Part shown: positions 6,601 through 32,457 of the stretch, in pieces
How the letters are laid out: every line of letters begins with the position of its first letter
Numbering within the stretch: the first letter of the stretch is position 1
Notes under the pieces: model-generated
Database searches by the model: none
Seen by the model: the letters and a program-made list of their open reading frames with translations, nothing else
Told to the model about the DNA's origin: nothing
Made by a program: the position numbers and the translations under genes
Assembly (NCBI GenBank): GCA_036172245.1
Contig: JAYWIR010000017.1
Span: 992,001-1,056,000, forward strand
Reading direction: 5' to 3'
DNA from: Raillietiella orientalis
Lineage: Eukaryota
DNA length: 64,000 nt

Positions 6601-9600
6601 ATACCATTGCAGGAAGAACTGATGCACTTATAGAAAAAAATTTCGGTCCATGAAATGGGGGGTTCACCTAGTCACACTGCCAGGGTGATCAGCTGAACGC
6701 ATTTTGGGAGAAGCGAGAGAGCGATTGAAAGGTGATGCGATAAAAGGTCTCGTGCACTTAATGGAGAAAGTTTTCTCTAAAAATTGCTTGAGTTCGATGA
6801 TGGCACCACGCAAGGTGTATTTGAACGGAGATGCAGAGTTTTCTTTTGGTGATTTTCAGAAAGCTGAGATTTCTGTCGATCAGCTTCAAGAGGAGTTTTG
6901 AAACCCCAGTCAGTGGAACTGCCCGCTTTTGAGAACATGAGATGCAGCTTCCTTCGCTTATCAATGGAGTTTGGTACGTCTCACCCAAATGGGCCTGCGC
7001 CGTCAGCATTCAACGTGCAGCAGCACCCGCGTATGAAATCTGTATGCATAAACAAAGTTGCACTTGGAGAAGCATTTGGCCACAAGTCTTTGGAAGGCTT
7101 TCGGATGCTGGATACTTCCGCTTGTCCTCCTAAATTTATTCCTGGACTGTGAAGCGAGCACGTGTGATTTGGGTGCCTGGTCTATCTTCGCGGAGCGCAT
7201 TTCCGAGTCGTGCCTCCGAGAAGTTCGACTGCTGCATTCCAATTTTTTCGATTCTTTTCGGCTCGGGTTCTTCCTTGCATGCTGATGTCGTGAGGGGACA
7301 AAAGAAAAAAAATCAAAGAAAACATCGAAAGATGAAAAGATATGAACACAATGCAATGAGTTTGTGAGGAATTTCCTCTTGACACAAAGAATGGGAGCAA
7401 TCCTGAAATAGCTTCTTCGCATCCATTTTTAATGCCCAGCTATTTCTAATCTAATAGATTCGATCAAATTATCTTTTAAAAGCAAACAAGACAGATGGAA
7501 AAATTCGAAACAGGGTGATTGAATCATGAAGAATCAGCAGCAAGAGAGAAGGTAGTTAGAGCATTCGCTCATCTTAAAGAAACTCAATCCTTCTGGAAGA
7601 ACTTTTGGAAAACCCAACTACGCGGCAGCCTGAGCTGCAGACCGAGCAACGCGTCTCCTGAAAAGGTGGTTGGACTGAGAGAAGAATTTTTGATTTTCGG
7701 TAGCGGCACAGCGAATGGCACAGAAAATGGGCACCACGGTCGAGCGGCGTCGAACACGCCTACTTGGCTTTACTTCCAGCCTGACGCGAATACAAATTGA
7801 ACCTCATAGGTAATTAAGTTGCTTTTCTCTTGAATCTGAGGATGGCTGCTGCAAGTCTGGAGGGGAATAGTGTCATTCATATAAATGGTACCGTAGATCC
7901 AGATTGGATGATTCACCATACAAGACCACAACGAGGATATGTGTGCCAACGAGGATGTGACCGCAACGAGGATATGTAAGCAGGGCTGGAAAGGAATCAC
8001 GGAACTAGTGATGCTCTACTTGGGCTCCGAAAAAGGTACGGAATCGAATCCAGGGAATGTTTTTTTTCTTTCTCTCTCGCTTTGAGACGATTGCAAAAAA
8101 TGAAAGGCAGAATGCCTCCATGCTGACAAGCGGAGCATCTCGATGCTTAACGCAATTGCGAAACAGACTTTCTGGGCAGTTGTTCGCGTAACAGATTTGA
8201 GTGTCTTCTGTTTCTGCGAACAGAGTCATTCATTCGACCTCGACAAATGGAATGAGAATCGAACAGGCAAAAAATCCTTTGTTTTTTCTTTCCTTTCGTG
8301 AAACAGACTGGGGACTTGCAATCGGCTGAGTAAACCCAATTAGTTATTGCTTTTGTTTTGTTGTGAGCACAAGAGCTTTTTTGTTTTCTTATTTGGTATG
8401 TATTCTTTATGATGAACCCGGATGCTGGGCCGTATGTTCCTCCACAGACGAAGCCGCCGCCATCTGAATAGGCTTGTGAAGCTGTTATTAACTGCTACTT
8501 CAGCAGAACGGATGATTTTCACTGTTGTATTCGAGAAGAAATGACCAGACATCCAAAAAAGGTCAGGCAAGGACTGAGAGCTCATGGAATAAATGACCTG
8601 TCTCATGAGCCACACGACAGAATCGCCGATGTTTCTGATAAAAGTTTCCTTCCTTTTCAGCCTTTCCTCGGATGATGGCTTGGGTGCCTTGCAAATCTTC
8701 AAAGGGCATCAGTGAAGCTGAGCTCACCGCGTACTGCAGCAGTCACGAGCGAAGATTAGTCACTCAAAGGCTGGTCGCGTACTTGCTGTGCCATGGATTG
8801 CGCAAGAGAGAGTGAATGCTAAACATGCCACAGCTGTCACGAGCTACTGAAGACAGTAAGCAGATCGTTGATTCCCTGGTGAAGTTCGTATTCGTCTCTC
8901 CACTTAATTTAACCATATCCGTTTCTTTCCTCCACAGCTTTCCATAGCAGCTATGAATGTTTTTCGATGCTTGGCTGCTCGATTAACCCGTTTTCATGTA
9001 AAATCAGCGCTTGGTGATGTCTCCATTGGATGAGAGTTTACATATCCGACTTCTTTCGCTCTTCCATGATGTTTGGTTTCAGAGTGCCTTTTTTTTTATT
9101 TTGCGGGTGCACGTCTGTATGTCACGCGCAGACACACGAGAGTTGCAATGCTCGTGCTCGTATTGCAACTCTCGCATCATGTCTTGTGTTACGAAAACTT
9201 CGGCAGCAGCCGTCTTTCGACTCTCGAAGCAGATCATCGGGAACTGGTCGCCTTTGAGATTCCTCTGTGTCGCGCATTTTGGAACTCCGACGAATATGGC
9301 TTTTCAAGTCGGAACTTCCTCAAGGACAGTACAAGGCTAACCCGCTCTCTGAAATTATCACGAGTGGGGCTGCAATACCTTCAGTTTTATTACATAGAGT
9401 CGTTGGTCCTTTGTAGTTTAGTTGCCAATGGAAATTTTCCTTAGATTTCCTCATCTCTGCTTCTTGCGTTCTCGTTCAGTCGGATCCTTAACACCGGGTT
9501 CCGATTTTCCATTTTATTCAGTTCCACTCCTCCAAAGGAAGCAGCATTTGCTGTGATACCTCAAAACATCAGAAAGTCCGATGGTCGCCATCGAATTTGC

Positions 9601-11938
9601 AGACAGAGGTGACCTTTGAAGAGAACCGCTTTGGAGCGGGGTTTCCAATGACATGACCACTTTCTCAATCAGGTAATCTATCATTTCAAATATATATCTA
9701 TATAAATTAACAAAAGCACAAGTAAACTGGGCTAGGCATTTCTGTCAGCCTCTGGACCGCAGGAAGGAACTTGATGAAAACCAATGGATGCTCGGTTCGT
9801 CAGATGAATATTCTCTTATCAAGAAAGCACAGCCTGTGCTTTTTTGTTAATATTCACGTGATGGGAAACAGTCCTCGAGTATCAGATGATCGAAATATCT
9901 CTTTCCAAACGAGCATGCTTTCGCGTGCCATGTTATAACATGTGTGGCGTTACACCGTGGCAAGAGACTCGTATGACATGTGACTTCACAGGACTGTGTG
10001 ACATTCAAGTTTTATCGCTGCGTCCCGTGGTATGCCGTTCCAGACGCGCAAGAATTCCGCCCAAAAGCAGACACAGAGACAGAACTGGGCAAAAGGCGAC
10101 CTGCGATATTCCACGTGGCAAGGATACGAGATGTCTACCGAGGAAAGACTACACTCAGACCTTATTTTACTACTACACAGCTACACGCTATGCTCATGCA
10201 ATGTTCCGAATTCACAGAAATGCACGTTTCACTCCGGAGAGACTCAGATTCGAACTCACATCCTGCATGCAAGAGATCATCTGCTTGAGTCATCAATGCA
10301 ATCCAAGCATAAGCACTCACCTATGAAAAAGTGGGCGTTGGCGCCATGCCTCTTATTTAGAGTGGGTGTGATTTTTAGTGCAATTATTTGTTTGCTTCAC
10401 TTGAACTTCGAGGAAATCGATAGTTCGACTGTGCTGCCATCTCTTGGGAGCTCGACTACTGAACATCCTCCCGTACCGAAGTGTGCATGCGCCGCGTGAG
10501 TATTCCCAGCAAGGGAGCCGCTACCAAAACGGCGCCACTGGGACACCATAACTTCTTGTTACTGACCTCTTATTGCAATTAGGACATTGTGGGAAGAGCA
10601 GCAGACTCCGGTTAGCAGTCTTCGCTTGTTGCGGAAACGTCCTTAAGGATACGCATCATGTGACTGATCCATCAACTCATATGGACCGGAGATTCGTACC
10701 GTGGTCCTGCTTTAAATTTCAGTCGACTCAGAGAGCAGCGCAAGCGAATTCTACAGGGAATTCCTCGGAGGTCCTGCTTCCAGACGCTCAGTCTATCGTG
10801 TCAGTGGAGCTGTTTTGTTCGGGTTCACCTGGAAACGCCTCTGCTTATGTAAGGGAGAAGAGAGAAGAAACGCTGAAGGAAATGAGGAGCTTCGAATAGT
10901 TCTGACTGCTTCGGGAAGCCTGCTGGAAACTATCGCTTCTGTGCCGCAATCCTGGAAGATCGCCTGTGCCAGCTCCAAGATGCGTCCTGGAAGAAGGGAG
11001 CGTTGCGCCGAAGGCAGAGGGAGCAGAGGGACGCCAGGAGAAAGGAGATCACGAAACGCGGATCATCAGTACCCTCAGGCTCCATCCGGGAACGACCAGG
11101 AGCTCGGCATCCATCGGCAGAGATCCTTGCGGTTTCGAAATGGCACATGCGGCGTCCTCGGCTACCTGGCTCCCCCCCCCCTCCGCCGAAATGTTTACCG
11201 CGACGCGTGCTGGCTCCGATCTCTGGAGACGTGAGGTCATGAGAACCAACCCTGCCCGTTGCTTCTTTCAGGAGATCCGTTCCCAAAGGCTCCCCGCGGC
11301 TGCTCTCTTCGTAGCCAAGAAGAACGGACTCCCGGTACCTGCCCGTTCCTGGATGAAAGCATCCTGACCTCCTGTAGCGGCAAAAAGGATCCCTGCTGAC
11401 AGGTTTGAAGAAAAAAAACCTGTCGCCACTCTACTTGACTCGGAGACGGCGCCACCAACGGCAAGAAGGAGGGCAGGAAAGGAGGAACTGCACGCCTCCC
11501 TCTTGTGGCTTGGAAACGCCACCGCATCATTCAGACGGGAGGCAGAGAGCTGGAGAAGCAGCAGGCAGTCACCCAAAGCATGATGCAAATAAAGAGAGGA
11601 GATTCTTCTGCTACTTCATCTCGGGGAGCCAGCCATTTTGTTGTCAACGGGAAGTGTGGACTCCTCCTCTGGATGGCCGCGGACCATAGGCAAGACTCGG
11701 CAAATCCCAGTGGCCCTCGCGTGTCGTCTCTGGCTGCCCCTCGACCAGGGCCCTGGGAGTTAGCCTATCCCGCAGGTGGGAAAGGAAAGACGCAGCAGCA
11801 GCGACGGCGGTGCTCTTTTTGTGGGCTCGGAGGATGGGGGGGAGAGGAAGAGCGAAGGACCGATCCCGAAGAGGTGAAGGAGAGCGCAGATTTATTGAGG
11901 CGTCTCCTCAGGCTGGAGGGAGATGCGAACGGGAGAGC

Positions 11939-12244
11939 TCAGGCTCTCCCGCGTGGGCTCGTAATCGAGCAGGTGGAGTTTTCCAGCCTCTCCTTCTCTT
12001 GCCAGGGCACCAGGACCTCGAGCGCGCAAGTGCGCCCCACTCTGTCGGTGCAGTTCAGCACGGTATCGAAGAGGAACCTCCATCCCGAAGTCAGCTGGCT
12101 CCTGAAGTTCTTGATCTGCAGCACCTCGCACTGCTGCACCTCGGAGGAGAGCTCCATCTTCAGCTTCTCGAACTGCTGGACCGACCTGTAGAAGTCATCG
12201 CTGGTTCTGGGAGGGTCGACGGGGTCGGACAGCTTCCGCAGCCC
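11939..12244 (-). CDS. Cystatin-like domain exon (divergent); upstream exon(s) uncertain
   Basis: After a polypyrimidine-TTGCAG acceptor the frame reads GLRKLSDP..FEKLKMELSSEVQQCEVLQIKNFRSQLTSGWRFLFDTVLNCTDRVGRTCALEVLVPWQEKERLENSTCS. It shows an N-terminal G, a QxVxG-like QLTSG loop, a PW hairpin and cysteine spacing typical of type-2 cystatins. Confidence 0.55.
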   Translation of the reverse strand, partial: GLRKLSDPVDPPRTSDDFYRSVQQFEKLKMELSSEVQQCEVLQIKNFRSQLTSGWRFLFDTVLNCTDRVGRTCALEVLVPWQEKERLENSTCSITSPRGRA

Positions 12245-15200
12245 CTGCAAGAACGGGCAGAAGGGGGGGTCGACACAGCGAAGAGGTAGGGTAGGCGGCG
12301 TCTCGTCCTCTCCCGAGCATCCCATCCTACCTCGAGCAGGGTGCGCGCTTTGCCCGCTCTTCCCCGAGAGGCTTTCCTGGAACGCGCGGGCAGGGGAGGC
12401 CCGCAGGAAGTCGGCCTGCGGGAGCCGAAGCCGAGACGCAGGAGGTCGGCAGGGCGCGTGGATGAGGGACTTCCCTTCGCCCACTGACTTCCATGGGATC
12501 CCCCTACTGCACGTCCAGGAAGCTTCCAGGACGCCTGCCCCCGCAAACCGCGCTCGCTCCCGCACGAAGAAACTCCGAACCAACGGTTTCCCGGAAGATG
12601 GAGGGATCCCTCGCGACCAAGAGAAAGGGACTTGAGGGTTGCTCAGGGAAATGCCTGCTCGCCCGACCATCCTAGTGAGAGGCCTTCCGAGAGGCCTTCT
12701 GCGGCGGGAAGGGGTTTCCAGGACGGTGGCTTGAGCGCGTGGCCAGCTAGGAGGCCTCCGCGCTTCCGAGACCGGGGGAACGCGTCCGCAGTGGTCGCAG
12801 AGGCGGACGGTAAGGGAGGGGAGAGATGGAGGCGCTGCTGTGCCTCAGGGATGGCGGGCAACTCACCAGGCGACCTTGAAGGGAAGGCTGCAGCGGGAAG
12901 AACAGGAAGAAAGAGGCGGCGACGGCCAGGAACGTTACTGCTCGAATCATCCTGGAAACGACACGAACGGGGACGCACCCAAAGCGAAACGGGAACTCGA
13001 CTGAAGCGCGGGTGGAGGAAGCTTCCCGCAGTCTGGCGTGCGCCCGGAAATTTGATGCCAGAAAGGACTCACTGCCCCTCTCCTCCACTCCCTCCCCTTC
13101 CTCCTCCTTCTCCACCGCCGCCACTGCCGTTGTTGCTGCGAGCGCGGTGCGCGAGCAGTCCCGCGCGTACGAAAGGGCGGAACAGCGGGTTGAGCGGAAG
13201 GGAGGGGGGGATCGAGAGACGATACGCCGCGTGCGCCTACTTCTCCGCTACGATCTCTTCGCGACGCACTTCCGCGGGCGTGGAGGTCACTCGAGGAGAG
13301 GTGGGCGGAGAGGGCGCGCGCCGGACCGCACACGAACGGCTGGGCTGCCGAAGAGGCTCGTGAAAGGACGCGCGTGAGCACCTCGAGGAGTGCGTCCTCC
13401 AGCGGTGCGGCCGCCGCCTTAAGCCACGCGGTCGAGAACGGGGGAGGGAAGGGAGACAACGCACATGACCCTTGACCTATCCTGCCTGTTTGTCCCGCTT
13501 CGTTCTCGAGGACTCCTCTGAGTCCCCTTTGGGTAAAACGCCTTAGTCTCTCCCTAAGGGGGGGATTTCCTTCAGACCCCCTAGGAGACATCGGTTTCCC
13601 CCACTTCGAGGGGGAAGTGAGATTTCAATCAGGGGGAGGCTCGTGGCAGCGACGGGCGCAGTGGTTCTGGAGGAGCTGCTCCCTTCCCTCTTTTCCTCAA
13701 GGATGGAATCCTGCTGGACTGTCTGTGGGATCACTCCGGGCAGCTGCAGAGACCCATCCCGAGATTCTCCCTTTCCGGACGTCTCCCGCTTATCCCCGGT
13801 ACAGAGGTGTCTCCCTTGCCCTAACTCGGCAGTGTGAGAGACTTCGCAGCTCAGAATGGAGGATGCAAGGACGGAGAGCACCAGCCCTCGCAGCCTCTAG
13901 GCCGAAGAGGCAGAGCGGGAAGAAAAAGGATTAGAATCGCCATGAGGCTCCACCCTCGTTGCGAGTTCCCTGCCTGCCTTTGGGAGATGGAGTGTCGGCG
14001 TAGGCTGCCAGACTTTGACCAGACTCCTGTGGGAATTCTTCGCTTCAGCCCAGATGCCTTTTCCCGGCTTCGTCCTTCACTCCGGACACCTTCTTCTCCT
14101 CCTGTTCCCCTCGCAGTAGCCACGGAGTCGTGTCCCGTCTTTCGAGGTGCTTCCAGCAATGTGCTCGTCATTCTTTCCTTGATCCAGCTGCTCCCCTCTC
14201 TGAGTACTTACTCAGAGAGGGGAAGCTTTGAGAGATTTTCTGACAGCCTTTGGAACTCCATTCCCGGAAAAGAAGGCTGTTTCCGTGCCTTTTGGGGGTA
14301 GGTAAGAGGAAGTAGACGAGGAAGGGAAGAAGAAGGAAGGAGGAGGAAAGTAAGGAGAAGGCTAGAGGAAGAAGAGGAAATTTCGGGAGGCAGAGAGATG
14401 ATGTGCAGGTCTTCTTCCCACCTCTTTCATTGAATTTTGTCCTTTCCCCTGAACAAGAAGCTCTATGTATTCCTGTTGCTCAAGGGAATCTTGAATCTGC
14501 ATCCTCCAATTCCCTCTGTACCCTCAGTAGCTTTTGTTTTCTCCGAAATTGAACTGGGATTTTCATTTTCCCTGGAAGTTCACAAGTGCGCCGTTGACCG
14601 ATATCCTCCTTCACGAACTCCTACTGTTCCCGGAATAGCGCTTTGCATTCACCAAAGATGCAATTTTCTGCCTCCCTTTCCTGCTGCTCCTGCGTGTGCG
14701 CTCGTCTGCTGGTCCCTCGACCCCATCCTGCGCTCAATCCCTGACCTGCCGTCCCTTGTTTTGCTTGCTGTAGAAGATTCGAAGTGATATTGAGCAGAGG
14801 AGTCTGAGTCATGCAGACTGGGAGACCGATCTACCCAGTTCTTCCTGAAGTCTTCTTTTGCTGGTGTTGCCAGTGGGAGGTTGACTTGTGTTTGTCTGCA
14901 GCCGACCCCTCATTTCTACGCCTACACTTCATGGAACATCTCCGGAGTCGTATTCTTCAGGAAGATTCTCGATCTTTAGGAGGAATTTCTCGTACTTCTT
15001 CGAAATTCCTCCCTTTCCTTTCTTGTTCTGCTCATTCAGTTGATCTCTGTGTGGCCCCACTTGAGACCTGCAGGTTTCACGCCATTGTCAAAGTCCGACT
15101 CCCTCAGTAAGCCGAACCAGAAGATGCACTTGGGCTCAGATACGCCTCTTGTCGGAACTTCAACTTCACGACCCAAACGAGCTGCGCCCCAAAAGGTTCC

Positions 15201-16903
15201 AATCCTGCGTGTGGAAGGTGTGTGGTGCCAGATGAGACCGAAGTATACCCTTCACCATTGAGTGTGACATGACGGTCTCATAATCAGAAGGCACCACGAT
15301 CCGGTCAGCGAAGTAAAAGGATTCACAGAAACAGAGGAAATTTTGGGTCTAGAGAGCAGGCGATCCAGGAAGTTTTGATCCGGCTCCAAACTTGAGCTAA
15401 GCCTCGCACTTCAGAAAGAAAATCATCATCCTCTTTTTTTGCTGCTGTTCCTTCGAAAAATCGGAGATGGTTTTCGAAGAGGCATGGAGAAGGAAGAGTT
15501 CGATTCCCCTGAAGAGTACAGGAAGAGGTCTGAGATTTAGTGGCAGGCTCACTAGGATCCTAAGATACATGAAACTCTGGAACTCGGGCCATCTAGCATA
15601 TATAGTGAGATGCGCACCCTGGTGTATTCCAATCTACGACGTAGCCATGCTGAACGTATAATTGGTGCGCCGTCTGAGTCATCAGGCAGGTGAAGCAGTT
15701 GGAAGAAATCTGCAAAGGAGGCAACGGCACAATAAGCAGTTTCCCATGTATCCGGGCAGTGCAGCAGTTTCTCCAGGAGGGAGTATACTAGAAGCAGTCA
15801 TGGAATGCTGAAAGCTTCATCAGAGTGAACATTGCATTGCTGATGACCGAGTGACCTGCTTCCATGTCAATGAAAGTTTCTTCTCATCGATCACGCACCA
15901 ATTTTGTGACGTTTTAGAATCTACGGGTTCCGTTATCAGACTATCCCAAAGTAAACTTTAAATTTACTGAAATGGCTCTTTGTATTCTAGGATGAAAGTG
16001 CATATCCTCTTAATATTTGCTTCTCAGAGACTCATTTCCAATAGATTTTGAAAGTTCAGAATACAGTTATATTTACATCAGCTGCAAAAAAATTTAATGC
16101 ACATTTACAATTTTTTGTCATCTACGTGTGTTGCTGAATCTGCTAAATCTGAAACGACTTGAAACCAACTCAAATTTGCAATTTATTCCCATTCCATCTT
16201 AAAGCAAATGATTTTTTTTAAAGCTCATATATATGAACCCGATTTCCATGCAATAAATAGTACAAATTCTCTAGCAGGATAAGAATATTTTTCACTTTTA
16301 GCATTTAGCTTAAGTGTCTTTTTGTGTGAAAAATGTTTTTAGTAACAAAATTGCCGAGGAACTTGAGTATTCATTGTTTATAGCAAAATCCTTTGATGTT
16401 TACATATTTTTAAATATATTATCAAATAATACCATCAGTTAGATAAGAATTTAGTCGTAGGGATTGTTCAGAGCATTAATTTGCTAATGAAAATTATTTT
16501 CATATCAAGTTTTTAAGTACTGCGGAGAAGTTTGGCCTAGATGTCTAGGTATCATGGGATTAATTACAAGATAGTAATTATGAATATCCTTCATCATTTT
16601 ATTATTTTTTATTTTTTTTCTGAATGATTCCTAATTAATAAAAATTGATCCCATTTTCTGGTGACTTCAATTATTATTAATTTTTTTGATTAGTATTTTT
16701 ATGAACTTTTGTGAACTTGGAAAACTTGGCAACTCTAAGCTGGGATTTGAATTTTGAACTTGTTTGCTTCACAACTGTGTTGTAGATGTACAATGTATAC
16801 TATGTCAGCAACTTTGTTTCATAGCCCCATTTGCAGTCGCCCAAAAAATTGGACGACGTATTAATGACAGAATGCAAGACTATATTTACCCCTGACTGGC
16901 AAA

Positions 16904-19485
16904 ATGCCTGTTGTAAGACGTTATGGAAAACAACGTGATAGCTTTACCGAATGGCAATATGCTTCAGATTCAGATAGCACATTTGATAAGCTTCAAAAAA
17001 GTTATCAAAGGTAATTTGTTTCCGCGACTGTATTGCATTATTTCATATTGTATTCATGCATTACATTATTATTCCATGTTTTGAACCTTCCATATTTGTA
17101 CTGTTGTGTACATTTAATTTGTATGATTATATAATTAATTGATTGAGAAGCATTATTCAGCACACGTATTATAGATGAGAAATGACCATATTTTAGGAAT
17201 CTTTCAACTCTTGGTAGTATAAATTCTGATAAAGCAACTTCCGAGGATTATAGTAACTCGAGTCAAGAGATACATAAGACTGTGGGTGTCTTATTTGCAT
17301 CATTGGATGGTGAGTCATTGAAGCTTTCTGAATATATATCTCATTTGATATGCTGCTTCTTAAGATGGAATTCAAAGTTCCAAAGATGTGAAACAGCGGG
17401 TTCGTAAAAAGTATCCTAATACTGCAATCACTTGTTGCATTAAAAAGCATGATGACCATGTAGTAACAACATTAGACGATGGTAAAATCACCAGCACGCC
17501 GCTAACCAAAATGAATGTGCCTCTCAGTAGGCAAGAAGAACTTCATTTTTCCCCCTTGACTGCCTGTGAAAAATTCTCAGATTGTGGACTTCTCCTCAGC
17601 CCTGAATTCACTCCTCCCTGGTTCCAATGTGTGGTTCAAACTGAGTGTGATGAATCAATAACATCTCACATACCCATTGTGAAAGCTGTTCATCAAGTTG
17701 GCTGCACATCACCTGAGATGTTTCTGTCATCAAAAGACTCTGCATCATTGTCTGAAATGAAAATCTCACATCAAGATTCTAGTGCTGGCAAGTTTGATCT
17801 CTTGAGATCTATGAAGGAATCCTGGAAGAACCATTCTAGAGATGATGAAGAGAAGTATCCATCAACTGAGTTGCTCCACCACAATGCAGATTTGACTGGT
17901 TCTGTATTGGAAATAAGAACAGTATCTCAGAAAAACATAGATGACAACCAGGATTTAGAAGCAATTTCCTGCCAAAGCAATTGTGATTTACCAGCACATC
18001 AATCTTCAGCAGATAAATTGTCCAAACATAATACTTCCAGAGAATCTGCAGAGAAGCTGTCAATGCTTCAAAAAGACTTTGAAGATACCCCACACAAAGT
18101 GAATTTACATCAATGGAAATGTGTGTATGCATTTGCTCTGGGTTGGTCAAAGAGTGTCTTGTGTCCAGGTTGTGTACGGCGGAGTTCCAGTGTAAAATTT
18201 CTCGTTCAGCCCCAAACTTCTGATAAATCTAAACCCAGAAGTTCACTACAGCTGGAAGAACAGATGCAAAAGTTGTCTATATCCAAGACTACTTTTTGGG
18301 AGTTACCCTTACCATTGCAGATTCTCCAATTATGCATTCAGGAGGATATTTTAGATTTCAGTAGTTGGCTGTATTCTAAGTAAGTACATCCTCATTTGTC
18401 CATATACATGATACATTTCAGAAATGTGAGCTCAGGTATCAAAGTGGGGGAGGGCGAGTTTGGTGAAGTTTTTTCCCTTTCACTGAATAAGGCTAAGGAT
18501 GCATGCATTCTGAAGATTGTACCCTTAGGCAGTGGAAATATGAAACAAGAAGAGATCCTTTCAGAAATGCTCATCTCAAAGTGAGTTCTTAAGGATATCA
18601 TTAGGATTACCTACATTTCTCAGGAGACTCAGCGAATTACGAATCTTTGGAGCTTGCTTTGTTCAGGTGCGAGGTTTCTACTGTGTTCAGGGCAAATATC
18701 CAGAACTCCTGTTACACCTGTGGGATGAGTTTGCAATGCAAAAAGGTAAACCAGCCTTCTGTAAATCCTATCTTTATGAAACAGAACTATTAGAGTCAGA
18801 GAATCAGCATCCAAGTGAGTTACCTGATGATCAGAAGTTTGTCATTCTTGAAATGAGGCATGCTGGTGACGAACTTGAGACCTATTCTCTTCACAATGCT
18901 GCTCAAGGTTGGGCGATTTTTCTGCAACTGGTCTGCTCACTGGCACTCGGAGAGTTTCATTTGCAATTTGAACATCGTGATCTCCACCTCAGCAATGTGT
19001 TGTTGCAACCCACTGATTGCCGCAGTCTTACATTTCAGTTGGGAGATCAACAAATCAAAGTGGAGACAGAAGGTATCATAGCAACAATCATTGATTTCAC
19101 CTTGTCGCATCTGACTGATGGTCAAGTAATTTTATTCAATGATGTCAGTGACAATCCTTGGCTCTTCACAGGGCAAGGGAACTATCAATTTGAAGTATAT
19201 CGGCAAATGAAGAAAGCCACAAAGTAGGTACAAGCATATCCAGTTCAGTTTCAATATTTGACTCTTAGCAATGATTGGGCCTCTTTTTGCCCATACACAA
19301 ATGTTCTCTGGCTTCATTATCTCCTTTTTCATTTGTGTGACCATTCTATATACCAGCTGAAGAAAAGCAAGCAGCATCAGAAGGGCATGGGGAAGCTGAA
19401 TGCTATAAAGGGGAACATATTGAAGTACCCTAATGCTATACATGTTTTGAATGCTTGTTTTAGGACTCAGAATCTGCTATATTAA
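16904..19485 (+). CDS. HASPIN: Haspin (histone H3T3) kinase. Exons 16904-17010, 17197-17309, 17365-18379, 18422-18580, 18624-18745, 18794-19223, 19269-19485.
   Basis: A long low-complexity N-terminus precedes KVGEGEFGEVF, ILKIVP, EILSEMLISK, VQGKYPELLLHLWDEF, FEHRDLHLSNVL, the haspin-specific IIDFTLS (replacing DFG), LFTGQGNYQFEVYRQM and W..FCPYTNVLWLHYL. Splice phases are consistent. Confidence 0.93.
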
Positions 19486-19486
19486 A

Positions 19487-20743
19487 ATGCTTTCGAAGTT
19501 CCGAGGTTGTTTACTGGGGGTACTGATTGGGGACTGTGTTGGTGCCCCATTTGAAGGGGACAATGGACCTATAAATGTTTCTGAAGTGCAGAAATACTTG
19601 ATCAATGTAATTGATGAAGGTGTGATAGTGCTTTCTTGCTGTTTAAGCTGTTTTCTACCTCGATTTCAGGACGTACACTGCCATACACAGATGATAGTGC
19701 TTTGACTTTTGCTGTTGCCAAATCCTTAATAGAGACTCTACAATTTGAGCCTACCAGCATGGCGCAAATGTAGGTTCAAGCCACCTAAATCTTGTGACCT
19801 TGTATAGGCTAGTCGAAGCTTACTTTGATGCACCTGAAAGAGGTTATGGACATAACATCGCAAATGTCTTCCATGCTCTTAAGAACTCGAGCTTTGCTGA
19901 TGTGTATACCCCAGCCAGCATGCAGTTTTCAGGGTCAGGATCACATGGGAATGGTGCTGCCATGAGAGTTGCACCTTTTTCTCTCTTTTATCATGATGAT
20001 AGAGAGCGTGGTTTGGAAATGGCTGAGAAACAGGCCCTGATCACACATTCTAATCCCATTGGATATGGGGGTGCAATGATTCAGGCATGTACAAAAAACA
20101 ATTACTTATGCCCTGTTCTTAGTTTGCTGCAATTTACTTAGCACTTCGATTGAGCCCAATTCATGAACTTAGTCCAACGTTAGATTTGAACCAGCATCAG
20201 AAAATCTTATATCTGGAACATCTTATGGATGTTGTACGCATAGTGGGCAGCCCTTTGTGGTGAGAGCATGCCCAGCATTAACTGTTTGTAAAATGATGTT
20301 CACTCCAGTCTACCGTTTGCCTGGAAATTAAACATTATTAAGTCACTGCTAGGAAAGCCACCGGATGCTTCAGAACAGAAAATTGTGATTAATGAACTGG
20401 GTAATGGAGTATCTGCTTTAGATTCGGTTCCCACTGCTGTGTATTGCTTTTTGCGTTCATTTGACCAACTTCCTGGATTGGAGGTTAGAGAATTTGTGTT
20501 GAATTGAAGTGTGAATCTTCCTTCCAGTGCCGAAATCCCTTCGAGAGAACATTACTTCTTGCCATTAGCTTAGGAGGAGACACAGATACAATCGCATCTA
20601 TGGCAGCAGCAATAGCAGGAGTCTATTATGGAGTAGAAATAATTTCTACTCAACTAATGGAAGTTTGCGAAGGATACGAAGAAATGTCTTCGCTAGCAAA
20701 TTCGCTTTTTGAGATTGCAGGATCACCAAACAACGCAATGTGA
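19487..20743 (+). CDS. ADPRS: ADP-ribosylhydrolase ARH3 (ADPRS/ADPRHL2). Exons 19487-19619, 19670-19769, 19808-20084, 20123-20259, 20309-20483, 20528-20743.
   Basis: Motifs are SKFRGCLLGVLIGDCVGAPFE, YTDDS, RGYG, GSGSHGNGAAMRVAP, ITHS, LGNGVSALDSVPTAVYCFLR and ISLGGDTDTIASMAAAIAG. One intron is GC-AG. Confidence 0.93.
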
Positions 20744-23700
20744 AACATGGTGCGAGCCCCATCAGAAATTGAATTTCCGTTTGGTGCATCGTCAGTATTT
20801 TCTCTTATGAATCTATTCCTGGCATGTTGCATGTAAATCAGATGTGCTAAGTTGCTCCATTAGACACTGTTAAACATACAGTCAATCGAAAGTTAATATT
20901 TAAGAGGAAAAATTATTTTTCAAAGAACTAGAGTTTAAAATTCTTCCTATCATCACAAATTTTGCAAGTAAAATTGTATTTTATTCATGTTTTCTGCATT
21001 TGCTGAGGGTCATAATTTCTCATATACGCCTAACTTATATGAAAACATGAAGGAATGTAGAGTTCACAAAAAATCATGTTCACTTTTTCAGTGGCATATT
21101 CCTATCTGGCTCACACTGAACTTAGAGAGCATAAATTCATTAAAAATCCATCCAATTGGCTTGGGATAAATGAGAATACAAAATATTCAGTATATCTCAT
21201 GTAAATTTCTATCATGAAATTTACCCACTTTGATCTTAGCCAAAAGACCGAGAAGCGATGAAATTTTCACCAGAAAATGATTGTACGAAAGTCTAATGGT
21301 GAAAAAGATCATTTTAGAATAACTGTATGTTAGAGAGTTTCTGTGACATTTCTAGGAGGCCAAGGGAAGTTCACGGTAGTATTCGTCCCTGATTATGAGT
21401 GTTTGGGAAAAGAATGTGGACTCTTGATAGATTGTTTTAGATGAAATGTTCCAAAACAGTGGCAATGCCGGTTGCGTAATATCAGCAGCGATAGAAGATA
21501 TTGAAAATCAATAGATGTGAATTTCACATCCTGGCGAATGAAAAGAGATTCTACGGCGTGAGCACCCACATATTGTAGAATTTTTCTTAGTCCAAGTTGC
21601 TGTAGTCATTCTTGGCTGGAACCAAACTTCTTGCTTACAGATGCTAAGATTGTGGAAGGTAATCTGCTTCTAAGCAGGGTATATCAAAGTGGAAAGTACT
21701 TTCCACATCGGTAACAATTCCTTGGATGTTCCTTTGTAGATTTCTTGTGCTTTCTGAAGCATCTGTGTATTGATGACAGTCATCCTTAATGATTTTCTGA
21801 AATATCGTAGATATCTCATAGACTAAGTAACAATTATAATTCCTTGTTATTGCAAATGAGCATATGATCAGCTAACAAGAGTTCACTCTTTCGATGAAAT
21901 CAAGACAGTTCTGGACCTGACACGCTTTAATCTTTGCAACTAGGCAATGAATAAATTAGTGCATGAAGCTTTTCTGTAAGCTAAAGGGTCCAGACTATAA
22001 TCTTGAATTCAGGCGATGATTCAAAGGAAACTTCATCGGGAATGAAATTGGATAAATTCATTAAGTGATTGGTTAGAAACCGGATTCAGAGATGCCGTTT
22101 GTGATCCGCTTGTCTTGTAGTGCTCTGGGTCATATTTTAGTGTTCGTAGTGTTTTATCTTAGGTGATTCTGAAGCCTTTCACTATAAAAATCATTGCAGT
22201 GTGATCCTCTCGGAATAACAAAACCTTTATGATGTCAGTAATATGAAGCAAGACGGGAAAAGCAAATGCAGTAAACAAATCTTAGCCGGGACTTAAAGCG
22301 ATCAGCAGATTACAGTGGAAGAGGAATTGTAGAGCATATCAAGCTTAATTTAGAATATTTTATACTAAGACCACCAGTGTAAACTCTTTTCTTATTTGCT
22401 ACTCTCGGAAAATTCTCTCCCAATGAAGCTTCGCTGTGTCCTAAAAAAATCTAAGATGCAATCATAAATCGAAATGATTTCAGGGGTGCAGGACAGTCAT
22501 CGCAAGCTTTTTCAATTGCAAACAGTGAAATAAACATCTCCAGGAGTGCATAAATGTAGACAGCAGTTTTTTCTGTGTGCTTATGAGATGCGACATCCCA
22601 GGAATTCGGCTGCCACCCTGTTCTTTTACTACAAGTCGAACTCGACTCATGTTTCTGAAATTAAATTACGACTGCTTTCTTGTTGGCATTGTCCCTTTTA
22701 CCAACAACCCACAGCCTAATAACATGTGGAAATAAAAGACTCGATATTCTGGAAGGAAGGCAAACGTTTCGAGGCCTGTTTTTAAACCTGTAAATGCCGC
22801 CGCTTTTAGCGAGCAGAGGAAAATATTCGAAGCTTAGGTACCTCACCTAAAGGGAAGTGAGTGACCTTTGTCAAAGATGGCGAACAATTCTGGAACACCT
22901 TCGAAAACACAAACATAAGAGCAAACATGATAATACAGACTATGAGCAGAGCTGGGTGCTAATTTGATTTGGTTCGAAGTGGGAGTTTTAAGATACGATA
23001 TTCATGCAAAACATATGTATACATGTATTGTAGTCACGTGCACATATGAGCACACGTGACTACAAGGACGAAAGGTCGCGCTTTCGATCTGCTATAGCCT
23101 AAGGTGTTTTACGAAACGCTTGAAGCAAGTCTTGAAAACACTAAAAGTGCCCTACATCCATAGAGAACTCAATGCTTTTTTCCACTGAGCAATCTATTCT
23201 CTATTTCATCGAGATGCAATCTGCTTCTTGATTCTCCGCAAGCAGCATACGAAGTGACGGGTCTTTCAGTTTTTTCACTTTGCAGGAGTGAAATTCACGC
23301 TACAGAGTGATGCTCTGTACTCTCGCTTGTTTTCTTTTTCTTAACACAGTTCGTTAATACCTTTTTGGAAAGAACCAGTGTTGCTAATATGTCATGACCG
23401 CTACACCAGGTCATATTACTCATTAGCAGCACGTGGGGTTTCGAAAAGTGTTAACTTATAGAAAAAGAACAATGGCAAATTCAGGAAAATAATGAACATA
23501 AACCAGACTTCAGGGCGGCAATATTTAGAGTAAGTTTTAGGATACCGATCGAGATCGAGATCCAAGTTCAATTGACCCGAAAGACCATATCCTGACTGGA
23601 ACAGCAATGACGGACTTTTTAAGAAAAACGAAGTCTTATCCGAACAAAGCTCTGATACGGTGTTCGGAAAGAATTATATGTAATTATGGCAGGACAACCA

Positions 23701-24520: not shown

Positions 24521-27150
24521 TGTATTTTGTTTCTCCGAAAACAGTAAGGAAAGCAACAGGAATTCTCACAGGTGAACAAATCTGCGAGCTCTTTGCAAAC
24601 TCGTGAATAAGCGGTATGTCCCAGAGAAGCATCTCTACACTTCCCATCTGTCGAATTTCACCGCGTACAGTGCAAATCACTAGACGGTCGGAAAATGGTG
24701 ATATTACTCTCGTTTCTCTTGCTCCTTCGAGCACCCTAATACATTGGGATATCTTTTTCGCGCTACCATGGCATCACATGCGCGAATGTCCGTCTCCAAG
24801 ATGTCTTTCTTGTTTCCCTGTGTAATTCTCAGAAGAACCCTGTCTCTTTTACCTTAATCCATGGGGACTGGATTTCCTCTGATGCCTTAGAGGGTAGTTC
24901 TGCAGGGTTGTTCTTCTAGAGAGGCTAGAAGCGATTCCAAATCGCGACACATGGAATGGAAACGCTTTCTGACCCAAAGGGAACCTCGTAGACACGATGA
25001 TAAAAGACTCTCCAAACGTTCTCTGCTGTGTTTTCTGAACACGATGCTGTGGAGAATGCAAGACGAAACCAAACCAGATTTGGATGATGTTCTCTAAATC
25101 GACTATGCTAACTGGGAGGTTTTCCAGCTTCAAGGCCGGGAATCGCAAAGTGCCTGCGGAGCTCCCCGTAAGGCAGAAAACAATTGCTCAGAAAATAATG
25201 GTGGCAAACTCATGCTAGAGCTTTCTACGAGGAAGACAGACTTTGCATAGGGATCGGTTTGAGTTAGGAACAGCTGCTCGTAAAGATAGATTTACCGAGG
25301 CACTTGCAGCAGGAGGAAGGAATTTCCAGGAATCCGGCATTTGAATGGTATTCGCTTCGCATCAACTCACAGTCGTCTTCTCCACTGCGTTGAAGCGCAT
25401 AAAGTTGGGAGCACTTCCCACATCCAGATTCTTGTTGTGCCAGCAAGTCATAAACGCTGGTGGACATTGTACTTCATGTCTCACTTGAGATTCACCATTT
25501 GTTTCTCCTTGAGAACACGTGTCCAGGTTACTTGGGGAGGGGAGCGCAAAAAAGGTTGGACAAACGAGCAGGAGGCTCTGAGATCAAACAAATGAAGGGG
25601 ATGAGATGCTGAAGATGGAAATATGCTTCCCAAACAGTATTACGAGAACTGCAGATTTTCATATATCTGGGAGTAAACTGGGAGTAAATAGTGAGTTCTT
25701 CTAGCCAGTCAACTGGGAGTAAATAGAGGGTAACAACGTCTGCTTCTTTTGCGAAGGGAAGGAAAGCTGCGCACTCTATTTGGAATTTCGTATTATCATA
25801 ATTTTCTGTATTATACCCTAATATTGCAAAGTATTGCTGATATACCAGAGTGGCTTGGAATTGTTACATGAAGTCCTATCTCTAAGTAACAATAAGCAAT
25901 CAGGAATCTTGTCAATGCCTAGTAAGCAGTCGTATTAAAGACATTCCGGAGGAACTTTATGGGATTCTGAAGACACGAAAACACGACTATGACTGGATAT
26001 GCGACCCATGCCCATGTGGCGTTCAAGCGATGGTTTCCACATCGGATTGCAAAAAATCATAGAGGAACCCCATAACAAATTCTCCTGCAATGATGATAAA
26101 CTCGTAATGAAAATTCTTGGAAGAACAGTTATCTCCTGCAATCACGCGTCAGACTTGGTCGACTGAGCTTCCAATTCTCTTCAGCTGCCGAATCCGTACG
26201 AGACTTCCGACGCACTGGTTCGGATCGGTCTCCGTCTCACTGCCATCTTGAGGGAGAACGCAAAAGTTCCTTCAGAGTTCTTTGGAAAACCAGACTTGAG
26301 TTCCTCCGGAAGGTGTTTTCTCGATAGGTGGCCTGTGGTGCCCGGAATCCAGGCAGCGTGTAGGCGGCCGTCATCTCCCGCGAAGGTTGAGGCTGCGGGT
26401 GGGTGATCCTTTTCAGCATCCGTCACAGCACTGACTTGGCCAGAGAAATCACACCGGTCTTGACGGTCGCCGATCGGACCGGAGTGGGAGCACCGCTCAG
26501 CTTCCTTACTCGTCAAAGGGCTACGAGAGTTCCGGGCAGGGATGTGTCGGCGTTTCGCATGGATATGAGGACGCATGTCCACACGCGGATAATCTGTCCT
26601 GATCCTTTCTCGGAAGCGGTAATTCACTCCCGCGGCAAGGATTTCTTCCGAGAGCTGTAAAACCTCGGAGGCGTCCACGTCGCCGATATGCTACTGGGGT
26701 CACCAAGTGATCCGGATGACCTCGGTCTTCTGGGTTGCAAGTGATAGAGTCAGGACCGCGCCGGTGAGGATCTAAGCCTCCATCCGGAAGACCCGGGACC
26801 AGGAGGTGGTAAGGCTGCTTGAGCCTTTGTCGATGGGTGCAGCGATTGGTGCCCACTTACGCGCGGGGAACAGACCCGAGGCGGCTCCGTTCCCGCAGCC
26901 TGCCTGGAGTCCTCTCTTTTTCTTCCTGAGGAGGACGTCCCTTGTGTACTTGGAGCCACTGCTCAAGCGCGTCCGTTCAAGCTCCTCAGGTGCCTCCAGC
27001 AATGATCCCTTCTCCCTTCCGCGTAGAGAGGAAGGCAACCGGACAAAGGGGAAGGCGACGGCTGGAGGGTGACTCCGTCTCTGTCTTCCCCTTTGTCCCC
27101 TCTTCCTCTTCCCCCCCCCTTTTCCCCCTAGGAGGACGAGGAAGCCTTAC

Positions 27151-27880
27151 GCGTATGAGCAGAGACAGGAACCGCTGCTCGTCCGGCAGCTCGGTCACCA
27201 ACTCCGAGGACACGGGCGTCCGGTGCTTCCTCTTCTTCGCTGTGACGTGGAAGGCGTTGGGGGAGGACGCCAAGGTCACCGCGAAGCCCTTCGCGGGAGC
27301 CTTCCCCTCGAACAGGAGCTCCGCCGGCAGGAACAGGGGGAACCTCGGGAAGGTCGACAGGTCTGCCGCCTTGGTGATGCTGCGAAACGGCGGGGGATGA
27401 GAGAGGGAAAGGGGGGGGGGGTCGATCGGGAGAGGTGACTGGGCTGCCTCCGCCGCTGTACTCACGCCCTTGTCCGGAGGGAGTCGCTGAGGATCAGCAC
27501 CCCTCCCGTCCCCAGCTCGAAGGCGTTTCGGAAGAACGCGCCGACGGCGTTCTCGGGAGAGCCATCCGCGGGCTGAGTTGGAGGACGAAGAAGAGCGAGT
27601 GAGCGCCCGGAGAAGGGAGAGGGAAAGGCGCGTGCGCGCGTCCACCCCCACAGCCTCCACCGTATCTTCCCGGTATCCCTGAGAGGAGAAACAAAAAACA
27701 ACAACAACAAAAAAAAAAAACGCCTCGCCTTCCAAAGACCTGCAGGCGCAGCTGGCACCGCGCATTGGCACCGAAGGACATGGGGTAGTTCTCAGTGTTT
27801 AGAGAGGAGATCCCGACAATGGACCCCATCTTGGTGGTGAGTTGGCACTTGCCGGTCAGCAGGACCACCATGTACCTCCC
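27151..27880 (-). CDS. Divergent CUB-domain-like spliced gene fragment. Exons ~27880-27740, 27572-27466, 27379-27151; both ends uncertain.
   Basis: Phase-compatible splicing gives GKCQLTTKMGSIVGISSLNTENYPMSFGANARCQLRLQ|PADGSPENAVGAFFRNAFELGTGGVLILSDSLRTRA|ITKAADLSTFPRFPLFLPAELLFEGKAPAKGFAVTL. This follows the CUB pattern C..S.NYP...N..C....F..FEL....L...D....F.....GF. Donors are GTCTTT, GTGAGT and GTAAGG, and the acceptors are pyrimidine-rich. Confidence 0.55.
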
Positions 27881-29780
27881 GGAGAAGGAGGAGGCGTTGA
27901 GGTGAGATGATGCCGGCGCCATCTCCGGGGGTACCCTGTCTAAGCTTCTTCCGTGGTTGCGCATCCTGGAGAGTGGCGTCTCCCACGTTTTCTGAAGGGT
28001 GGGAGGAGGTGATCCTGTTTCCACTTGAGAATGGATAAGAAGGAGGAGGAAGGGGTGGAGGAGGGGGAGAGAGGACCCTTCCCATCACTCCTGCGCGCCC
28101 CAGGCTTCTCTCCCTTGGCACCACGACGATCGTCAGTTGCTAGGAACCACTCCCAAGGCCGTGAGAATAGAGACAAAAATGGGGTCGCGACGTGGTCCCA
28201 CCCCCGCGCTACTCCCAGCTTAGCAGCGCCGGTGCAGACCACTTGTTTCTAGGCGCCACTCCTGTATGTCACGGGGAAGGGATCGGCGATCGGGCCCTGC
28301 TGCCCTGGGAGAAAGAGTACCCTCCTCGTCCAGCTCTGGGGACATCCCGAAGGACGCCAGGTGTATCTCAACCATTGATCCCAAGAGGATTCTTTCGAAA
28401 CCCCGAGGAAACCACCAAACTTATCGGTGCCTGAAGAGCGTTCATCCACTGCGCCTCCCGGGGCGGCTCACGGGGACGGCACCGGGATGCCAGAGCGAGA
28501 GCACTCCTCAGATCCAAGAGGAGGGAAGTTCAGGGGAAGATTCTCACGTCGCGTCTCGGAGGGATGTCCAGGCAGGGTCGCGGGAAGGAGCTCCAGGCCA
28601 GCCATGCCGTTTCTTCCCTCTCTTCTCTCCTGGAAGACGACTCTGCGCGACGGGCCCTTCCGGGAGTCCCTCTTGCTGAGAGGGGAGCGCCCTCTCCAGA
28701 GTAGGGGCATTCCAAGAGATCCACGGTGAAGGAGCGCGAGGCGGTCCACGCGCATTTTTCCCCGCCGTTCCTTGCTCTCATCCCTTGCCACTGGCGACCG
28801 ACACGGGAACGAAGCGGGAGATTCCCGCTTCGTTCCTTCCCTCCCACTCCCTATTCGATCGCGCCCCCGTCCCTCACGGGAGCGAGGTCTTCCAGAGGAT
28901 AGCGTATGGCCTCGGAAAAATGGGCCTTTTTTATGTGAGAGGACCCGGTATCCGGAAGGTCGCTCCCGAAAGCTCAAGGGAGGGCAATCCCGGGGAATCC
29001 GTCCGCTGTCTCGACGAGATGACCCCTCTTCCGAAGGAGAGGTGAAGTGTACGCCTCTCCCGATCGGAACGGGTGCAGGCGCACTCCGTGGGGACCAGAG
29101 AAGGAAGTGGGAGGTGCCCCAGGGAACAGGGGTGAGCATGCACCTCTACCCCCCCCACCACCACCACCACTCTCCTCTTTCCCATTCTTCCCTCCTACAC
29201 AGACGCAGCACCGCTCTAGGAGGCAAACACCCGGACTAACGGTCCTTCCGGTCGCCGTTGGAGACTCCCTCCAGCCCGGAAGCCTCTTCCGGTTCTCTCT
29301 CCCCGGAGGGAGCCTCTACCGTTGCCTTCGCTCTCCTCGGAGGCGGGTGCCTTCTTCCTGTCCGAGGGATGGTGGGGTCTTCCTTGCTCATCAGGAGCGA
29401 CAGACGGCGCGAGGCGACTCTCACAGAATTCTCATGGAAGCTCGGCTGATGCTATCGGGAATCTGGACTTCCCCGGGAAAGGGGATGCAGCGCTCCCCTT
29501 TCTCGTCATCTGGATCCTTTCGTGTCCCCTTATTGTCGCAGGAAACAGAAAAGGAGGATGCAGCGCTCCCGGACTTCGAGGCTGGGATCGCTCTGCCGCG
29601 CACCTGCCAGGGAGCGGCAGGGCGACCCTTCTCGAACGCGGTCTAGGCATGGGGAGGGAGTCCCGTCCCGGATGACCAGCAGAGTCCTGGAGAGGAAGGC
29701 AGAAATCCACCACCACGGCTTTCCTTTTTCTTTTTTTTCTTTCTAACCAGGATGCCGGCAAGGGGAAGGAAAGCGTTGGC

Positions 29781-30751
29781 GCTCAGGGGTCTATGAAGGA
29801 GGCGCTGCGGGTTCGGATCCGACTGGAACGCGCCCCGGGTCGCCACTTTTCCCTGTCCTCCTCCCCGTTCCTTCCAGGGATGCAGTAGCGGCAGCTCTCA
29901 CCACGAGCAGGCCGATGGCGATGGCACTCGCCAGCATCTTTCCGGCAGCCAAGGGCGGCGGAGGCATTCCCGACCGACGGTCTCCAGCAGGTAGACGCTC
30001 CCGAACCGACGCTTCCCGGCGGCACGCCCTCGCAGCAGCACCACCGCGGTCCACAGATGCACTGAGCGGATTCCGTCGCGGGAACGCGTGGGTAGCCTCC
30101 CTTCCGCGGCGCCGATCGTCTCGCGCGCGCGCCGGCGAACTGGCGCCTCGAGTGCGGGAGAGGGAAGGCGGAGGGAAAACCGGAAATGCGGGTTGAGGGC
30201 GGTCTCCAGAGGAAGCGCGGAACGGGGACTGCTGCCTGTTCCCAGGAAGAAAGAACCGATGTCCTGTCCTCTGCAGGCCCTTCCCTACTAGGTCTTTCCT
30301 CCTTCCTTCCGGGCATCTCTGCTTCCGGAATTCTGACCTCTTCACACGGAGGCAGCGTCCGTCGGGAGCAGGGCGGGAGGCGCGTGCCCGAATTCCTTCC
30401 CCTGGCAGGCGCCACTCCCTGGTTCTCTCACTTCTCCGGGACTTCGGGAACGCACGCATGCCTCTCCGGAAGCCTCCTCCCTCGTCTGGATCTCCCTTCA
30501 GCCTTTCTTTCCCAAGGACATGTGTCCCTCATGTGTCCCACTCAAGGAACGGGTGGGTGGGAACGAGGAAGACATCGGCTCTTAGGGACCCCTGAGGGAG
30601 GCGCTGCGGGTGTCAGGTCTGACCAGAAAGCGCCCCGGGTCACCGACTCTTCCCCCTCTTCATCCCCCTTCCAGGGAAGCCTCAGCAGCAGCTCTCACCA
30701 AGAGCAGGCCGATGTCGACGACACCCTCCAGCGTCTTTCCGGCAGCCGAGG
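29781..30751 (+). repeat. Two diverged direct copies of a ~170-bp module (29781-29954 and 30579-30751)
   Basis: Shared blocks are GGAGGCGCTGCGGGT..GCGCCCCGGGTC and CCTTCCAGGGA..GCAGCTCTCACCA.GAGCAGGCCGATG..CCAGC.TCTTTCCGGCAGCC.AGG. Confidence 0.85.
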
Positions 30752-32067: not shown

Positions 32068-32457
32068 GGCCCGCATTGGCGACCGTGTGGCTGGGGTCTC
32101 CGCTCGTGGTACCAAGCGTTGCAGATTTGAATCTCCACGTGGAGAATTGACGCCGGAAAATGGATGCGTCGTGGGTTTCGATTTCCCCCTAGAAGAACTC
32201 TGGCTGGACCAGGAGCTTCGCGTGCTTCGGATGCACCCGTCGACTGGCCAGGATTGGAAGTTGATCCTCCGAGATCCTTCCAGGAATCAAGGAGTCGGTT
32301 CCTTTCGGGGTTCTCCTTCGGTTGTGCAAATGGAACCGTCCCTCCTTCCCGAAGGAAGGGAGAGGACCCTCCATCTCGTACCATGGAGCTGGTTGGTTGA
32401 TACCTCTCCAGAGTGTGAAGCGCGCTGTTCCCTGCGGGAAGCGCCCTTCAGAGAAAT
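32068..32457 (+). mobile_element. Putative tRNA-derived SINE, copy 1 (degraded B-box)
   Basis: Collinear similarity over ~390 bp with 40521-40931, including CCGTGTGGCTG.GGTCTCCGC, GGATTGGAAGTTGA, GGAATCAAGGAG, CGGTTGTG, GGAACCGTCCC, GAGCTGGTTG and TTCAGAGA. Confidence 0.65.

Follow-up and report, generated by a model that had tools for sequence, protein, structure and literature searches.

How are two complete genes expressed when a single base separates the stop codon of the first from the start codon of the second? The question is raised by a haspin/ARH3 locus on contig JAYWIR010000017.1 of Raillietiella orientalis (assembly GCA_036172245.1), which was analyzed within a stretch of 64,000 nucleotides (contig positions 992,001 to 1,056,000; hereafter the window, in whose own numbering all coordinates are given). 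Both genes lie on the plus strand. As read directly from the sequence, the haspin TAA occupies 19483-19485, a single A follows at 19486, and the ARH3 ATG occupies 19487-19489; the letters up to and across this TAA-A-ATG junction (19483..19489) are CTGCTATAT TAA A ATG CTTTCG, and the ARH3 AUG stands in the context AAAAUG. These are exactly the stop and start positions given in a preliminary description of the locus, whose naming of the genes as haspin and ARH3 also holds, with Pfam PF12330 and PF03747 both scoring above their cut-offs. No other recognizable coding exon of the window is found within 10 kb of the pair, and a spacing of 1 nt between two intact, co-oriented genes is a non-random feature. 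We tentatively favor, with a confidence somewhat short of even, the reading that one promoter drives both genes, with the haspin mRNA ending at an ATTAAA signal and the ARH3 mRNA formed by splicing onto base 19464.

The haspin coding region (16904..19485, plus strand, stop included; 736 aa) was modeled by hand and checked by script as six exons in a single open frame (16904-17010, 17197-17309, 17365-18379, 18422-18580, 18624-19223, and 19269-19485), separated by introns of 186, 55, 42, 43, and 45 nt, all of them GT-AG. Pfam Haspin_kinase PF12330 (curated cut-off, 25 bits) scores 122.6 bits in the frame of exon 5 (18544-19227) and 31.7 bits in that of exon 6 (19228-19485). The kinase-fold motifs GEGEFGEVF (Gly-rich loop), ILKIV, FEHRDLH, and IIDFT were found in the model, and the H-R-D-L-H and D-F-T columns are invariant in a 12-sequence haspin alignment. 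Identity to database proteins does not exceed 44%, the best matches being orthopteran, crayfish, and barnacle proteins. The kinase exons (18422-19223) retain the catalytic residues and are altered at three near-invariant positions when compared with 11 homologues, namely F for Y in the Gly loop (GEGEFGEVF versus GEGVYGEVF), S for G after HRDLH (HRDLHLSN versus HRDLHWGN), and H for R after DFTLS (IIDFTLSH versus IIDFTLSR). At the N-terminus encoded by exon 1 (16904-17010), MPVVRRYGKQR contains a Y-G-K core that resembles the PDS5-interacting motif, the consensus of which is K/P-S/T-Y-S/T/G-K/R (PMC8198109); haspin homologues have KTYGR, KVYGR, and RTYSK at this position. At the opposite end, the last exon aligns with the chiton protein P0016 until 12 residues before the end of the latter, and 15 residues remain here, so that the two C-termini differ in length by only 3 residues.

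The ARH3 coding region (19487..20743, plus strand, stop included; 345 aa) likewise comprises six exons in a single open frame (19487-19619, 19670-19769, 19808-20084, 20123-20259, 20309-20483, and 20528-20743). Among the exon-boundary combinations that were tried, open frames resulted from just two (344 or 345 aa, one residue apart), and the 345-aa version with a GTGAG donor was adopted. The third intron (20085-20122; 38 nt) is of the GC-AG type, and, of the combinations tried, only those using its GC donor preserved both the frame and the conserved FAAIYLAL segment; across both genes, intron lengths range from 38 to 186 nt (n = 10). PF03747 (ADP_ribosyl_GH; cut-off, 26.2 bits) matches exon 3 with 62.2 bits and exon 6 with 45 bits, the former exon being 54% identical to an ARH3-like protein of the shrimp Palaemon, and ARH3 accounts for 11 of the 12 PDB matches of the downstream protein (E 3.4e-19 to 2.2e-17). 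The segments GDCVGAPFEG, YTDDSA, and GGDTDTIASM align with the same motifs of Palaemon ARH3, which we take to belong to the Mg (metal-binding) site. The N-terminus MLSKFRGC lines up with ...ASKFRGC of Palaemon ARH3, and P0216, the closest among the ARH3 representatives listed (61% identity), starts with MLGRYRGC. As had been proposed, the ARH3 frame is open downstream of the acceptor-like site discussed below; it is in fact open already from an upstream in-frame ATG (19451..19453, plus strand), which would extend the N-terminus by MLVLGLRICYIK and is directly preceded by a two-codon upstream open reading frame (ORF; 19442-19450). Judged by homologue alignment, haspin ends at its natural C-terminus and ARH3 begins at its natural N-terminus, and the two are intact genes. 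With both ends of the junction natural in this sense, the scenario in which a differently spliced haspin C-terminus would abolish the abutment is unlikely. The frames of the two genes differ, and no fusion protein is readable.

Signals for both 3'-end formation and splicing are found at the junction. The preliminary description had stated that there is no room for a haspin poly(A) site, and this is contradicted by a hexamer scan, which located ATTAAA at 19481..19486 (plus strand), overlapping the haspin stop codon, with a G+T-rich stretch 19 nt later. Within 19300-21600, ATTAAA occurs only at 19481, 20327, and 21139, and AATAAA is absent; the hexamer at 19481 is the sole AATAAA or ATTAAA between 19300 and 20327. 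The first poly(A)-signal candidates past the ARH3 stop are AGTAAA at 20967 and ATTAAA at 21139 (20967..21144, plus strand). The G+T-rich stretch (19505..19544, plus strand; G+T fraction, 0.825), which spans ARH3 codons 7-20, is the top-ranked 40-nt G+T window in 16904-21400 and a candidate downstream element of the haspin poly(A) site; metazoan poly(A) sites are laid out in this way, with a G+T-rich window after the hexamer. The TTTTAG acceptor-like site described in the last haspin exon is present as well, although its coordinates are 19458-19463 and not 19457-19462, base 19464 being the first after the AG. Scored with a position weight matrix (PWM) built from the ten real acceptors of both genes, whose leave-one-out scores range from -5.2 to 10.6, the 3' splice-site-like sequence tttgaatgcttgttttag followed by G (19446..19463, plus strand) reaches 7.1, which is inside the range of the real acceptors. 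Its AG lies 23 nt from the ARH3 AUG, and a CTAAT is found at 19429-19433, 31 nt upstream of the site.

A further line of evidence is provided by the distribution of CpG dinucleotides. A continuous CpG-depleted domain extends from haspin exon 3 to ARH3 exon 5 (17501..20500), with observed/expected (o/e) ratios of 0.0-0.38 per 500 nt, and the median for the window is 0.78 (213 bins of 300 nt). A ratio of 0.3 or lower was obtained for 14 of the 213 bins, seven of which fall in 16.5-20.1 kb. Not a single CpG is present in 19202-19493 versus 10.5 expected (P about 8e-5, assuming an o/e of 0.9), and the 300 nt 5' of the ARH3 ATG contain 1 versus 10.4 expected. The haspin 5' end retains its CpGs, with 8 versus 9.9 expected in the 300 nt around the haspin ATG (16754..17053), and this region is likely, to judge from its composition, to be the promoter and transcription start region of the unit. 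Arthropod methylation is concentrated on the exons of genes that are conserved and widely expressed, and it is unseen on promoters in insects (PMC7343188). Viewed in this light, the locus, with its uninterrupted depletion and a haspin 5' end that keeps its CpGs, resembles one promoter with one methylated gene body; a promoter-like CpG gap before ARH3 is missing. Elsewhere in the window, strongly CpG-depleted bins occur only in an immunoglobulin region (52324-53086) and at 55.5-57.9 kb. Of the preliminary description, the anatomy and the abutment hold, and co-transcription is favored only on the indirect grounds of the uninterrupted CpG depletion.

Based on these signals, the following sequence of events is proposed for the single-promoter reading. 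Transcription would start from one promoter at about 16.8-16.9 kb and proceed through haspin and ARH3. Cleavage and polyadenylation at the ATTAAA of 19481-19486, aided by the G+T-rich stretch at 19505-19544, would generate the haspin mRNA, the 3' untranslated region (3'UTR) of which would be about 15-25 nt long and made of the first ARH3 codons. Alternatively, the 3' splice site between 19463 and 19464 would be joined to an upstream donor to generate the ARH3 mRNA, in which a leader of 23 nt would stand ahead of the AUG in its AAAAUG context. This donor could belong to a 5' exon that ARH3 shares with the haspin unit (in cis) or, if the lineage has one, a spliced leader (SL; in trans). The poly(A) and splicing outcomes would be mutually exclusive for each transcript, and the processing choice would set the haspin:ARH3 ratio; haspin and ARH3 would be translated separately, packed in one head-to-tail expression unit.

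Several observations weigh against this proposal. Extra selection for G+T downstream of the ATTAAA is unsupported by synonymous resampling, which gives a mean of 0.76 (P = 0.18), and the G+T richness of 19505-19544 is mostly set by the conserved ARH3 peptide GCLLGVLIGDCVG. The acceptor-like site ranks 8th among the 249 unused AG sites of the 3.8-kb locus, with seven scoring higher, and 163 of the 8593 AG sites in the whole window score at least as high; it is not beyond chance, and the likelihood that a site of this quality falls in the 40 nt next to the ATG is estimated at about 8%. The CTAAT was rejected as a branch-point criterion, because a YTRAY motif is missing in 8 of the 10 real acceptors. 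Splicing in cis would need an intron of at least 2.1 kb versus 38-186 nt for all ten real introns, although long introns are possible in this genome, given that exon-like ORFs of the nicotinic acetylcholine receptor (nAChR) gene elsewhere in the window are spaced by more than 2.3 kb. The CpG argument presupposes germline gene-body methylation together with an unmethylated promoter, and a narrow TATA-type or soma-only promoter could lie within methylated DNA. Each of the hypotheses considered here finds its own signal at a chance level of roughly 5-10%, and none of these signals is decisive.

The two possible sources of the donor can be considered separately. In a splice-phase check of five donors, phases compatible with 19464 were found, a match that is expected by chance and serves as a lead only. 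Splicing of exon 1 to 19464 produces an upstream ORF of 42 codons with the same TAA as its stop, and exons 1 and 2 (donor at 17309) joined to 19464 encode an in-frame protein of 426 aa, in which haspin residues 1-73 are placed on a complete ARH3. That splicing from 17309 to 19464, of the kind described for Su(var)3-9/eIF-2gamma, yields such a 426-aa haspin-ARH3 isoform including RRYGK is a long shot suggested by the reading frames. If it does, a serine-ADP-ribose hydrolase would be carried by haspin's own chromosome-targeting module, and the removal of serine-ADP-ribose from H3 would be coupled to the site of H3T3 phosphorylation. An SL operon at haspin/ARH3 would be the first in an arthropod and is decidedly doubtful. 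Copepods and amphipods do have spliced leaders, and operons are unreported there in the available text of PMC7986045, which speaks against the spliced-leader version; neither "operon" nor "polycistronic" is used in the available text of PMC4664967. No SL RNA family reached any threshold in the Rfam search of the whole window or in a permissive scan of 15800-22000.

A different explanation, unlikely although to be taken seriously, is that the two genes are overlapping independent units, with haspin ending at the ATTAAA and ARH3 transcribed from a promoter inside the last haspin exon. The candidate internal core promoter is a TATAAAG at 19404..19410 (plus strand; haspin codons A-I-K), which lies 83 nt 5' of the ARH3 ATG and is one of only two TATAAA occurrences in 16000-19500. 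A YYANWY-like CTATAC, read by eye about 34 nt 3' of it, would place the start at about 19435-19438, and the resulting 5'UTR of about 50 nt would end in the strong AAAAUG context. In Drosophila, moreover, a 3'UTR overlapping with the following gene's 5'UTR is regarded as ordinary (PMC4528330). Against such a promoter, the 300 nt 5' of the ARH3 ATG are CpG-depleted like a gene body, unlike the haspin 5' end, and a housekeeping-type promoter would be expected for ARH3. A TATAAA within about 100 nt has a chance of several percent in the AT-rich DNA of this region, and the Drosophila core-promoter motifs TATCGATA and GGTCACACT are absent from 16000-19500. The transcript would also include the upstream AUGs at 19442 and 19451.

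Less probable still is a dicistronic mRNA of the Drosophila type, in which both ORFs would reside on one mature transcript and translation of ARH3 would depend on termination-reinitiation at UAAAAUG or else on internal entry. The same-strand spacing of one base and the single CpG-depleted domain covering both genes are compatible with it, and precedents are numerous: 159 dicistronic pairs are annotated in Drosophila, and in 18 pairs coding sequence is shared out of frame, 26 of the 36 genes concerned being on polycistronic transcripts (PMC4528330). Reinitiation, however, would be needed after an ORF of 736 codons. Leaky scanning was excluded, as 51 AUGs lie between the haspin AUG and the ARH3 AUG in the spliced mRNA, and 30 of these carry a purine at -3. 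An element of the termination upstream ribosome-binding site (TURBS) type consists of a UGGGA motif complementary to 18S rRNA and a structured element within about 90 nt upstream. No UGGGA (TGGGA in the DNA) occurs in the 187 nt upstream of the ARH3 start (19300-19486), and no stable structure was predicted at the junction, where the 151 nt around it fold with z = +0.97 and 169 of 200 shuffles fold equally well or better. The suggestion of stop-start reinitiation accordingly fails in its TURBS form; the unstructured junction would itself be no obstacle to a ribosome. In addition, a well-formed poly(A) signal stands right at the junction, where a large share of the transcripts would be expected to be cleaved.

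Misassembly, or decay of one of the genes into a pseudogene, is hardly probable: the haspin deviations at near-invariant residues (HRDLHLSN for HRDLHWGN and IIDFTLSH in place of the SR ending) could be read in this way, but the 12 exons are in open frames with canonical or GC-AG splice sites, the haspin HRD/DFT catalytic motifs and the ARH3 metal-binding motifs are intact, and the window is without any N. That read-through, frameshift, or splicing joins haspin and ARH3 into one fusion protein, a possibility to which ORF proximity alone points and which the preliminary description had listed in its spliced form, is scarcely credible, since the ARH3 frame is shifted by +1 with respect to that of haspin, translation past the TAA ends after 22 codons, skipping of ARH3 exon 1 would lose the conserved GDCVGAPFEG segment, no two-domain homologue was found (PF03747 in 0 of 89 haspin homologues and PF12330 in 0 of 6 ARH3 homologues), none of the best 150 among 1047 ARH3 representatives exceeds 461 aa, and two representatives with long N-terminal extensions (P0234 and P0236) contain no haspin-like sequence.

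The interest of the single-promoter reading lies in the functions of the two products. Haspin writes H3T3ph, which positions Aurora B, and ARH3 reverses serine ADP-ribosylation, including that of histone H3 (PMC8758696). If one promoter and a processing choice do serve both genes, a single locus would link two marks of the same histone tail, and the junction would represent a clean natural case of competition between polyadenylation and splicing at an intergenic region of zero length, in a genome that is otherwise not compact. In the literature, no paper was found that links the haspin and ARH3 loci, and none on haspin in combination with the term dicistronic; in the available text of PMC8758696, haspin is mentioned only in the reference list. 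The haspin/ARH3 co-expression unit is a candidate and not a discovery.

Beyond the two genes, the window contains features of several other kinds. A degenerate U2-like element lies at 21130-21259 on the minus strand, about 390 nt past the ARH3 stop; it scores 35.6 bits versus the Rfam U2 gathering score of 46, its first approximately 33 nt of U2 are near-exact, the branch-point-recognition segment is missing, and a pseudogene and a variant snRNA are both possible readings of it. Nothing in the whole window reached an Rfam gathering score, and, apart from this U2-like match below threshold, the permissive scan of 15800-22000 yielded only two snoRNA rows at chance level. Alpha-type nAChR exons (212-898 and 3232-3738, minus strand) are 74-75% identical to insect and crustacean receptors; they lie more than 2.3 kb apart with a CpG o/e of about 0.9, in contrast to the tiny introns and the CpG depletion of haspin/ARH3. 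Together with the haspin and ARH3 matches, these receptor matches mark the window as arthropod-like and probably pancrustacean, no annotated relative being close. A FERM-domain exon (48641-49036, plus strand) is followed by a pair of immunoglobulin I-set exons that run in the opposite direction (52324-53086, minus strand), and a tandem repeat of 24 nt (3.4 copies, 79% matches) is located at 63601-63682. Blocks of 55-64% G+C at 10000-14000, 26000-32000, 36000-42000, and 60000-62000 stand out from a background of 36-45% and have long stop-free frames in all six phases. No Pfam domain was found in six long ORFs tested from these blocks, which show two weak internal similarities only (32070-32454 with 40523-40916, 66%; 29767-29954 with 30566-30751, 78%).

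Comparison with other haspin loci was made on the best 80 of 247 confirmed metagenome-contig matches. ARH3 is present in 0 of the 80 loci, of which 45 include 1 kb or more of sequence downstream of haspin and 27 include 2 kb or more; none of them is from a close relative, the best whole-exon identity being 40%. The comparison shows no more than that haspin loci are not generally paired with ARH3. Mammalian haspin (GSG2) is intronless and nested in an intron of ITGAE. In both cases haspin occupies an unusual, tightly shared genomic position, although the partner gene differs, and the haspin described here has five introns and lies upstream of its partner instead of being nested.

Among known systems with adjoining reading frames, the viral cases of termination-reinitiation, such as the calicivirus TURBS and influenza B M2/BM2, are alike in having stop and start within a few bases. 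In contrast to these, the present junction lacks the UGGGA and any predicted upstream structure, the gene is cellular, and the upstream ORF is very long. Operons without an intercistronic region occur in Ciona (median, 1 bp) and Oikopleura and as the rare SL1 type in C. elegans (PMC7986045). In those SL operons, which mostly comprise two genes, the poly(A) signal and the acceptor are nearly superimposed, as they would be here. They belong to tunicates and nematodes, whereas the haspin/ARH3 window is arthropod-like and no SL RNA family was found in it.

Abutment of the kind seen for haspin and ARH3 is a known arrangement in arthropods, and dicistronic or abutting pairs are well documented in Drosophila. 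The dicistronic and polycistronic pairs of that genus (FlyBase; PMC4528330) similarly consist of unrelated same-strand protein genes with little or no spacing, some pairs having a coding overlap of less than 40 nt. Neither haspin nor CG40080 turned up in a search of 12 supplementary files of PMC4528330, which did not extend to file 1. The present pair differs from the Drosophila pairs in its upstream ORF of 736 codons and in the poly(A) signal at the junction, and it is read from DNA alone. The cholinergic ChAT/VAChT locus is a shared-5'-exon locus that is resolved by alternative splicing. In Drosophila, 162 gene models are flagged for shared 5' exons, including Su(var)3-9/eIF-2gamma (PMC4528330), a locus of insects in which one promoter serves both genes and an acceptor is located just 5' of the downstream coding region. 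The haspin/ARH3 locus would differ from such loci in that the last 22 haspin coding bases would overlap the ARH3 leader, and its acceptor at 19464 is a candidate only; it resembles Su(var)3-9/eIF-2gamma in the proposed single promoter, in the position of that acceptor, and in having a histone-modifying enzyme as one partner.

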